From NCBI RefSeq assembly GCF_002571385.2, contig NW_019217840.1, forward strand, positions 479,885 to 543,884: 64,000 nt of DNA, in the 5' to 3' direction. Made by a program: the position numbers and the translations under genes. The DNA is from Stylophora pistillata. Lineage: Eukaryota. Numbering within the stretch: the stretch's first letter is position 1; every line of letters starts with the position of its first letter. A model generated the notes under the pieces. It was not told the origin of the DNA and did no database searches. It was given only the letters and a program-made list of their open reading frames with translations. Below are positions 51,001 through 54,000 of this stretch, piece by piece.

Positions 51001-54000
51001 ACCTGAAAAAAATTCAGGCCTGTACGGGATTCGAACCACTGACCTCTGCGATACTAGTGCAGCGCTCTACCAATTGAGCTAACAAGCCAACTGGGAGCAG
51101 GCCATCAAATTAATTCGACATAAACCCGTAGATGATAAATCAAACAACAAACATATGAAATACATATATATGAACTGCGGTTATGAAACGTATATGTGCA
51201 CGATCCTTCGCAGTAAAGCACTATTTAAGCAATAGTGAAAATCAGACCTGAAAAAAATTCAGGCCTGTACGGGATTCGAACCACTGACCTCTGCGATACT
51301 AGTGCAGCGCTCTACCAATTGAGCTAACAAGCCAACTGGGAGCAGGCCATCAAATTAATTCGACATAAACCCGTAGATGATAAATCAAACAACAAATATA
51401 TATGAAATACATATATATGAACTGCGGTTATGAAACGTATATGTGCACGATCCTTCGCAGTAAAGCACTATTTAAGCAATAGTGAAAATCAGACCTGAAA
51501 AAAATTCAGGCCTGTACGGGATTCGAACCACTGACCTCTGCGATACTAGTGCAGCGCTCTACCAATTGAGCTAACAAGCCAACTGGGAGCAGGCCATCAA
51601 ATTAATTCGACATAAACCCGTAGATGATAAATCAAACAACAAATATATATGAAATACATATATATGAACGGCTTGTTAGCTCAATTGGTAGAGCGTTGAC
51701 TGGGACCACAACATTGACTGGGACTCTGCGCAATGCCTAACCTACAGCACTGACTATTTTCAACGACTGACTCTGGAAAGCTGGTTTACTAACTTAGAAC
51801 AGACTCCCCTAAACAGATGTCAACAACTACCCGCTCCATACAAACGACTCATTCACGACATAAACATCACAAACGACCGAAAAAGAACGACCTAACTTTA
51901 CCGACAGATCGAAACAGACCAATCACGACCGACTTACGTCACTTGAGTCTTACAGCCAATAACATCACGGCAAAACCAACCGATCATTTCACACGAACTG
52001 GAATAAGAACATTCTACTGACAACAATCATTCACTTGACTCTGATGATGACTTCCGCACAGGTTGTCGAAACGTCAGTCACTACCACCGACAACAGTCCT
52101 TCTCAGGACTACACTCACCCGGACGATCAGACTACACCTTCACATGTTACCCCCGGGTTCAAACCATTTACTGCATTAATAATTTTTTGTTCAGATTTTA
52201 ATTAGCTAACCGGAAACACAGCTAAGCTTTCTCTTAGCGCTTGCTGGAGGTCGTCTACGAACTTAACGTTCTCTGCAACCTTGGCCCTATTGTGAACGAT
52301 TTTACTACAAAGCGAAGATTAGATTTTGGCGCGCACAGAAAACNAGCTAACAAGCCAACTGGGAGCAGGCCATCAAATTAATTCGACATAAACCCGTAGA
52401 TGATAAATCAAACAACAAATATATATGAAATACATATATATGAACTGCGGTTATGAAACGTATATGTGCACGATCCTTCGCAGTAAAGCACTATTTAAGC
52501 AATAGTGAAAATCAGACCTGAAAAAAATTCAGGCCTGTACGGGATTCGAACCACTGACCTCTGCGATACTAGTGCAGCGCTCTACCAATTGAGCTAACAA
52601 GCCAACTGGGAGCAGGCCATCAAATTAATTCGACATAAACCCGTAGATGATAAATCAAACAACAAACATATGAAATACATATATATGAACTGCGGTTATG
52701 AAACGTATATGTGCACGATCCTTCGCAGTAAAGCACTATTTAAGCAATAGTGAAAATCAGACCTGAAAAAAATTCAGGCCTGTACGGGATTCGAACCACT
52801 GACCTCTGCGATACTAGTGCAGCGCTCTACCAATTGAGCTAACAAGCCAACTGGGAGCAGGCCATCAAATTAATTCGACATAAACCCGTAGATGATAAAT
52901 CAAACAACAAATATATATGAAATACATATATATGAACTGCGGTTATGAAACGTATATGTGCACGATCCTTCGCAGTAAAGCACTATTTAAGCAATAGTGA
53001 AAATCAGACCTGAAAAAAATTCAGGCCTGTACGGGATTCGAACCACTGACCTCTGCGATACTAGTGCAGCGCTCTACCAATTGAGCTAACAAGCCAACTG
53101 GGAGCAGGCCATCAAATTAATTCGACATAAACCCGTAGATGATAAATCAAACAACAAATATATATGAAATACATATATATGAACTGCGGTTATGAAACGT
53201 ATATGTGCACGATCCTTCGCAGTAAAGCACTATTTAAGCAATAGTGAAAATCAGACCTGAAAAAAATTCAGGCCTGTACGGGATTCGAACCACTGACCTC
53301 TGCGATACTAGTGCAGCGCTCTACCAATTGAGCTAACAAGCCAACTGGGAGCAGGCCGTTAAGTTGATTAGTAATAAACCCGTGAAAGTGACAAATGAGA
53401 TACAATGAATATATGAAGTTCATATATTTTGAACTGCGTATTAGATACTTAACGGCCTGCTCCCAGTTGGCTTGTTAGCTCAATTGGTAGAGTGCTGCAC
53501 TAGTATCGCAGAGGTCGGTGGTTTGAGTCCCGTACAGGCCTGATTTTTTTCAGGTCTGATTTTCGCTATTGCACAAATAGCGCTGTCTACTGCGAGGATC
53601 GTGCATCATACGTATCTAATACCGCAGTTCAAAATATATGAACTTCATATATTCATTGTATCTCATTTATCACTTTCATGGGTTTATTACTAATCAACTT
53701 AACGGCCTGCTTCCAGTTGGCTTGTTAGCTCAATTGGTAGAGCGCTGCACTAATATCGCAGAGGTCAGTGGTTTGAGTCCCGTACAGGCCTGATTTTTTT
53801 CAGGTCTGATTTTCACTATTGCACAAATGGCGCTAACTACTGCGAGGATCGTGCATCATACGTAACAACTCATCACTTTCTAATAAATTAACTCTAAGCT
53901 CCATTTATAGCTACCTCTAAAACATCAAATCAATTCATATTTGATATGGCACAAATCTGTAATGATCAATTTCAATCAATTCCTCACTGAATCAAACTCA

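Follow-up and report, generated by a model that had tools for sequence, protein, structure and literature searches.

The tRNA-like tandem repeats that are interrupted at this locus of Stylophora pistillata show Penelope-type insertion anatomy, and on the strength of that anatomy the family is probably moved by a Penelope-type enzyme, with no particular Penelope family named. The junction at which a 5'-truncated Penelope-like element meets the repeat array is, by itself, probably ordinary. For this junction we lean slightly towards a later insertion of Penelope into a pre-existing array, with the 26-nt and 9-nt pieces between the two templated locally at joining. The features of the locus are listed in Table 1, with positions in the window, that is, the whole 64,000-nt stretch of DNA analyzed. 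Genome-wide counts were run on the 398-Mb assembly, which consists of 5,513 pieces.

Table 1. Features of the array/Penelope locus at 50678-53862 of the window (Stylophora pistillata, NW_019217840.1)
Feature	Position	Strand	Remarks
AT-rich left flank	50678-50696	+	opens with 9 nt that repeat the last Penelope base and the 8 nt following it
tRNA-like array, left arm	50697-51669	-	roughly four A-type units (245/247 nt); outer terminus is the "short" fixed end
tRNA-like 5' piece, 26 nt	51670-51695	+	begins at +1; reverse complement of 51555-51580
Junction stutter, 9 nt	51696-51704	+	re-copy of Penelope 51714-51722
Young 5'-truncated Penelope-like element	51705-52175	+	end of RT-GIY-YIG ORF and 3' pLTR; "long" end
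Minimal type I hammerhead-like motif (candidate)	52036-52080	+	5-bp stem I, CUGAUGA and GAAAC cores, 3-bp stem II
Palindromic MITE-like repeat piece, 168 nt	52176-52343	+	adjoins the Penelope end at 6 loci
Assembly gap, single N	52344	.	conceals the true right junction
A-type units again	52345-53358	-	245/247-nt variants as in the left arm
B-type unit sequence	53359-53449	-	A/B crossover within the shared tRNA-like stretch
B-type plus arm	53450-53862	+	follows the main inversion point; "short" terminus

Each unit of the left arm carries a 73-nt tRNA fold, and ARAGORN and Rfam agree that the tRNA-like gene, which lies on the minus strand, has its +1 at 51580. The initial annotation had the array break at 51669 and flip there into a sense tRNA 5' piece. 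The minus-strand array does end at 51669, and 51670-51695 is in sense orientation and starts exactly from +1, but 51669 is not the inversion point of the block, since minus-strand units resume at 52345 past the one-N gap and the main inversion lies at 53449/53450. Similarly, the 11-nt duplication described next to the tRNA piece is present, with TTGACTGGGAC at both 51696 and 51714, but native Penelope sequence runs from 51705, so that only 9 nt (51696-51704) are extra and 2 nt are shared.

Beside the block, an ORF at 50180-50626 on the minus strand contains an ATG7-like exon (ThiF E = 4e-5; ATG7 structures E = 6e-17). The array lies directly upstream of this exon on the minus strand and is probably intronic. 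An older, divergent Penelope-type fragment with 70% DNA identity occupies 49870-50202 (minus strand). Elsewhere in the window, a second tRNA-like family, with a Ser anticodon and likewise head-to-head, is found at 39975-40347, and pieces related to the B-type unit lie at 466-1191 in an inverted layout with 22-nt stutter repeats and without a tRNA call.

The Penelope part had been described as a truncated GIY-YIG tail with a hammerhead, ending at 52173. It is a 5'-truncated 3' end whose ORF stops at 51896-51898 and which shares 98% identity with residues 314-377 of L061, a sister copy; its actual end is 52175, and it lies C-terminal of the GIY-YIG motif, without a Pfam match of its own. The EN+ Penelope-like domain order, RT then C-terminal GIY-YIG, is found through L061, which matches RVT_1 (E = 2e-4, 16-93) and then GIY-YIG (E = 9e-4, 264-302), both matches being weak and under the Pfam curated cut-offs. 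The element is putatively of the Penelope/Poseidon type. As for the hammerhead, a minimal hammerhead-type core is located at 52041-52072 and the pattern is preserved in 96 of 116 Penelope 3' ends, but an Rfam scan of the motif was blank and its folding z was -1.3. As a sequence pattern, the candidate motif in the pLTR fits the min-HHR description in the accessible part of PMC4209133.

At least 501 exact 26-nt 3' ends of this Penelope family are present in the assembly, and the family is young, its best 40 copies being 98-100% identical. We drew three samples from it: 80 loci among the 100 ends listed first out of at least 501, on the largest contigs (sample A), 29 long copies (sample B), and 90 of 156 short-arm matches, 6 of which overlap the 80-locus sample (sample C). 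The usual insertion comprises a TSD, an inverted arm that lacks about 31 nt of the 3' end, starting near position 1380 of 1411, a sense arm that reaches the full end, and the TSD again. TSDs of at least 8 nt flank 36 of 48 gap-free sites, with measured offsets of 8-12 nt (n = 32) and 7-12 nt (n = 30). One locus, L098, was tallied among the 19 non-inverted ends, yet is inverted with a long stutter. In five insertions (L289, L300, L301, L305 and L315) the TSD encloses nothing but a short arm. Among 51 canonical inverted copies, 11 of the 13 spacers of at least 7 nt contain re-copied Penelope sequence; stutter at the junction is thus routine in this family, which makes the duplication at the window junction ordinary.

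These properties match those of known elements. The accessible text of Craig et al. (10.1101/2021.04.23.441226) describes Penelope-like inverted 5'-truncated copies with a tail of 30-40 nt confined to one end, and PMC11167929, in its available part, reports two fixed internal start sites and AT-rich targets for an anole Penelope element in vitro. The window family shares with EN+ Penelope-like elements the RT-GIY-YIG order, the minimal pLTR hammerhead motif, 5' truncation, the one-sided tail (31 nt here), the two fixed start sites and the AT-rich targets. The window copy is another member of this known kind, although it lacks an inverted Penelope arm and its 5' end joins tRNA-like sequence.

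The tRNA-like repeat comprises at least 7,658 units in the assembly, and we examined 65 unit blocks, mostly from contigs C1 and C2. TSDs of at least 8 nt flank 23 of the 30 gap-free head-to-head blocks, compared with 11 of 868 mismatched controls, and 2 of the 22 blocks that are not head-to-head. All 18 classifiable head-to-head blocks pair a short end with a long end (12 of the 30 were unclassifiable), and most block ends lie close to unit positions 0-9 and 47-61. In 23 of 24 cases the two arms are made of the same unit type. From this combination of short and long ends, head-to-head arms and TSDs we infer Penelope-type mobilization of the repeat. The proposal that a Penelope-type enzyme moves it is therefore supported by family anatomy and not by the junction in the window; its real support is the presence of Penelope anatomy in a non-coding, tRNA-derived unit. 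The donor is not pinned to the window Penelope family, because the two have no 3' sequence in common (the best matches between unit and family are of 8 nt, E 1.8) and the long-end tail of the tRNA-like family, at about 50 nt, is longer than the 31 nt of the Penelope family.

Classical tRNA-derived SINEs have a tRNA-derived core, thousands of copies and TSDs. The array family has all three, but its units are tandem and head-to-head with two fixed ends, include about 100 nt upstream of +1, and carry a T-run directly after the tRNA and no A-tail. We rejected a classical SINE for the array unit, since at least 7,658 matches keep the native upstream bases, compared with 21 that begin at +1, and since the copies terminate at two fixed positions inside the unit. 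MRC1-type Chlamys elements and metazoan non-LTR retrozymes, proposed as users of PLE enzymes in the accessible parts of 10.1101/2021.04.23.441226 and PMC7229834, resemble the array, as far as those texts describe them, in having TSDs and short tandem units, non-coding and 220-250 nt long. The window unit differs in its tRNA fold and in the lack of an Rfam hammerhead match: a gathering scan of the unit returned tRNA matches only, and a non-LTR retrozyme was rejected for want of a canonical type I hammerhead by Rfam. Coral CMITEs (PMC2872659) also form tandem arrays, but the available description links these TIR elements to piggyBac.

How, then, did the array and the Penelope element come to adjoin? 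In the reading that we slightly favor, the Penelope enzyme would have nicked AT-rich DNA inside the array and copied Penelope RNA from its long start site, after which the free left end would have been patched with a short inverted copy of array DNA, followed by a slip on the Penelope cDNA. In a variant, the 26 nt would be a stub of the array's own plus arm, Penelope having landed just past the inversion point. Two observations favor this order of events. First, a rare 247-nt unit variant, with 60 exact matches on 26 contigs out of at least 7,658 units, has five matches here, two to the left and three to the right of the Penelope piece. Second, a simple insertion needs about 157 nt from the Penelope end to 52345, and 168 are filled; this agreement to within 11 nt is weakened by similar fill lengths at two other loci.

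The captured 26-nt piece is itself explained by adjacent target DNA, being identical to it in reverse complement, and a precedent for such a local patch is found at L310. This TSD-bounded, gap-free Penelope insertion contains a 228-nt inverted copy of its own flank at 100% identity, so local DNA can be copied in inverted form. The routine stutter and L310 count for later insertion, together with three results on junctions. The first concerns the +1 start, which is weak as an RNA signature: starts at +1 are barely enriched, at 21 compared with 15 and 10 at two control offsets, whose patterns were not strictly matched (4 of the 15 resemble 1-nt deletions), and 20 of the 21 units carry on as ordinary units, the window one alone turning into Penelope. 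The second is the rate of direct Penelope/unit junctions. The initial annotation looked to their enrichment, but they occur at 2 of 80 unselected sites against 0.4-1.7 expected, which is about background (0.5-2.1%), and neither of the two has an enclosing TSD. The third is the fate of 90 Penelope short arms, of which 44 have another Penelope arm as partner, 16 break off at gaps and 30 end otherwise; with those 16 included, none of the 90 has a TSD-bounded tRNA-like long arm.

Some observations count against later insertion. The piece that starts at +1 has no microhomology on its left. Of 42 Penelope 5' ends that lack a Penelope partner, a post hoc subset, 3 adjoin units, and p is 0.001-0.06 depending on the background (the test used n = 162). 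In addition, the 9 nt at the Penelope end match the left flank of the array at 50678-50686, a match that is rare by chance, being seen in no more than 16 of 45,999 random 25-nt windows and in 1 of 216 insertion flanks. If it is a duplication, as is possible, this match implies a TSD of 18 nt, longer than the family's usual 7-12 nt.

The last observation counts for a single insertion of two RNAs, which recasts the template switch originally proposed for this junction as twin priming. Penelope RNA would have given the long arm and a tRNA-like tandem RNA the inverted short arm at 50697-51669, with the 26-nt and 9-nt pieces as stutter where the arms joined, the units right of the gap as fill, and the B element as a separate neighbor. 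We consider this account possible but unlikely, and its stronger form, in which the Penelope enzyme used its own RNA for priming at one DNA end and the tRNA-like tandem RNA at the other and the young family is the donor for more than 7,600 units, is a little more doubtful still. The right-hand units, and this too counts against later insertion, may be left-arm fill, because they lie past the gap and the assembly overruns repeats beside gaps. They may be fill also because the block, if read as one array, is at odds with its family: both of its ends are short, in breach of the short/long rule, A and B types are mixed at a crossover, and a TSD is lacking. If they are fill, the locus has twin-primed polarity, the left arm being the short one and Penelope the long one, and the short end at 50697 with the long end at 52175 fits the family rule. 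On the same side, both families are young (98-100% identity), the captured piece begins at +1, and an imperfect duplication of some 22 nt is seen at L311. Moreover, a change of template inside one TSD-bounded insertion is documented for the Penelope family: in 3 of 90 insertions, all three gap-free, foreign sequence lies between the arms (329 nt in L283, 86 nt in L284 and 231 nt in L310), and one of these inserts resembles the Penelope flank of another locus (82 nt, 95%).

There is also a precedent from LINE-1, for which the accessible part of PMC13174262 describes chimeras with tRNA fragments or U6, in which TSDs of 9-19 bp enclose both parts (in all 8 that were checked in that study). These chimeras are similar to the window junction in placing a short tRNA 5' fragment beside a truncated retroelement and, as described there, in their template-switch and twin-priming geometries. 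They differ in that no TSD is visible at the window junction and that its fragment is identical to adjacent target DNA. The B-type plus arm shares no TSD of at least 8 nt with the left flank, and GTAAC was rejected as a TSD of the whole block, being too short compared with the 10-14 nt at other array blocks. The 18-nt TSD that two RNAs in one event would require exceeds both measured ranges, and the matching 8 nt open a tail that is common to 5 loci without such a match in view. Against this account stand also the lack of any mixed TSD-bounded insertion among about 164 distinct sites, the form of the other head-to-head mixed junctions, which are long/long (L095) or short/short (L303) and without a TSD, and the need for about 1 kb of assembly to be wrong.

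The true right end of the Penelope element is concealed by 168 borrowed bases and the N at 52344. The MITE-like tail follows the Penelope end at 6 loci with differing 5' ends and meets an N at 5 of the 6. A TSD to the right of 52173, where the initial annotation would have sought one, was rejected because the sequence there is common to these 6 loci, and 52176-52343 was rejected as unique flank, since the same sequence follows the Penelope end at 5 other loci. The tail is either a 3' transduction or a gap-filling overrun. Its reading as a certain 3' transduction was dropped in view of C65, where a near-perfect TSD appears only past a gap, after a second Penelope end, and of the clustering of gaps: an N lies within 1.1 kb at 12 of 12 long/long Penelope loci compared with 7 of 49 canonical loci. 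Flank duplications and repeat overruns beside N gaps are also seen at the long/long loci and at L053, L058 and L199. In this assembly, a junction close to a gap should be read with care.

An assembly or library artefact, in which gap filling stitched Penelope and its tail into a collapsed array, would account for the tail meeting N at most of its loci, for the near-perfect TSD past the gap at C65 and for the flanks common to unrelated loci, of which there are 4 groups. We consider it improbable, given that the 5' junction is 670 nt away from the gap, that the three-part patch resembles real stutter at TSD-bounded, gap-free insertions, and that genuine read-through tails exist, as at L284. Among the filtered short-read contigs listed from five runs, none spans 51669/51670 or 51695/51705; the same listed contigs leave 51646-51665 uncovered, though that sequence has 60 copies in the assembly, and their pattern weighs neither for nor against the junction. 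In the three best runs, 0.91-0.92 of 74 sampled words are present, roughly the level expected if the junction words alone were missing, which is no more than a weak hint. Unit-to-Penelope joints elsewhere in the short-read contigs were set aside, as their sides were shorter than 30 nt.

Further Penelope/tRNA-like junctions were seen at L095/L189, L120/L188, L303 and L322, all one-sided in the DNA examined; no enclosing TSD was found at L095, L120 or L303, and L322 meets a gap. Such one-sided junctions without a TSD (L095, L120, L303) would fit a fusion of two neighboring elements by a later deletion, palindromic head-to-head arms being perhaps unstable. For the junction in the window we regard this as very improbable, because a plain deletion leaves the added 26-nt and 9-nt pieces unexplained and there is no microhomology at 51669/51670.

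If the later insertion into the array holds, the junction is an ordinary nested insertion, and the family-level result alone matters. A single chimera, even if true, would show that the Penelope enzyme can copy unit RNA, and not that this family is the usual partner. A proven mixed-arm insertion would say more: it would identify the family that donates the enzyme and demonstrate that priming of the two DNA ends can use different RNAs, in a process whose steps after first priming, according to the accessible part of PMC11167929, still await validation. In the literature searched, from which Repbase and subscription papers fell outside, we found no tRNA-derived non-autonomous PLE. The interrupted tRNA-like family is probably a variant of the known or proposed non-autonomous PLE derivatives. 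A tRNA-derived repeat with the short/long, head-to-head and TSD signature of Penelope would amount to a SINE-like passenger of the Penelope enzyme.
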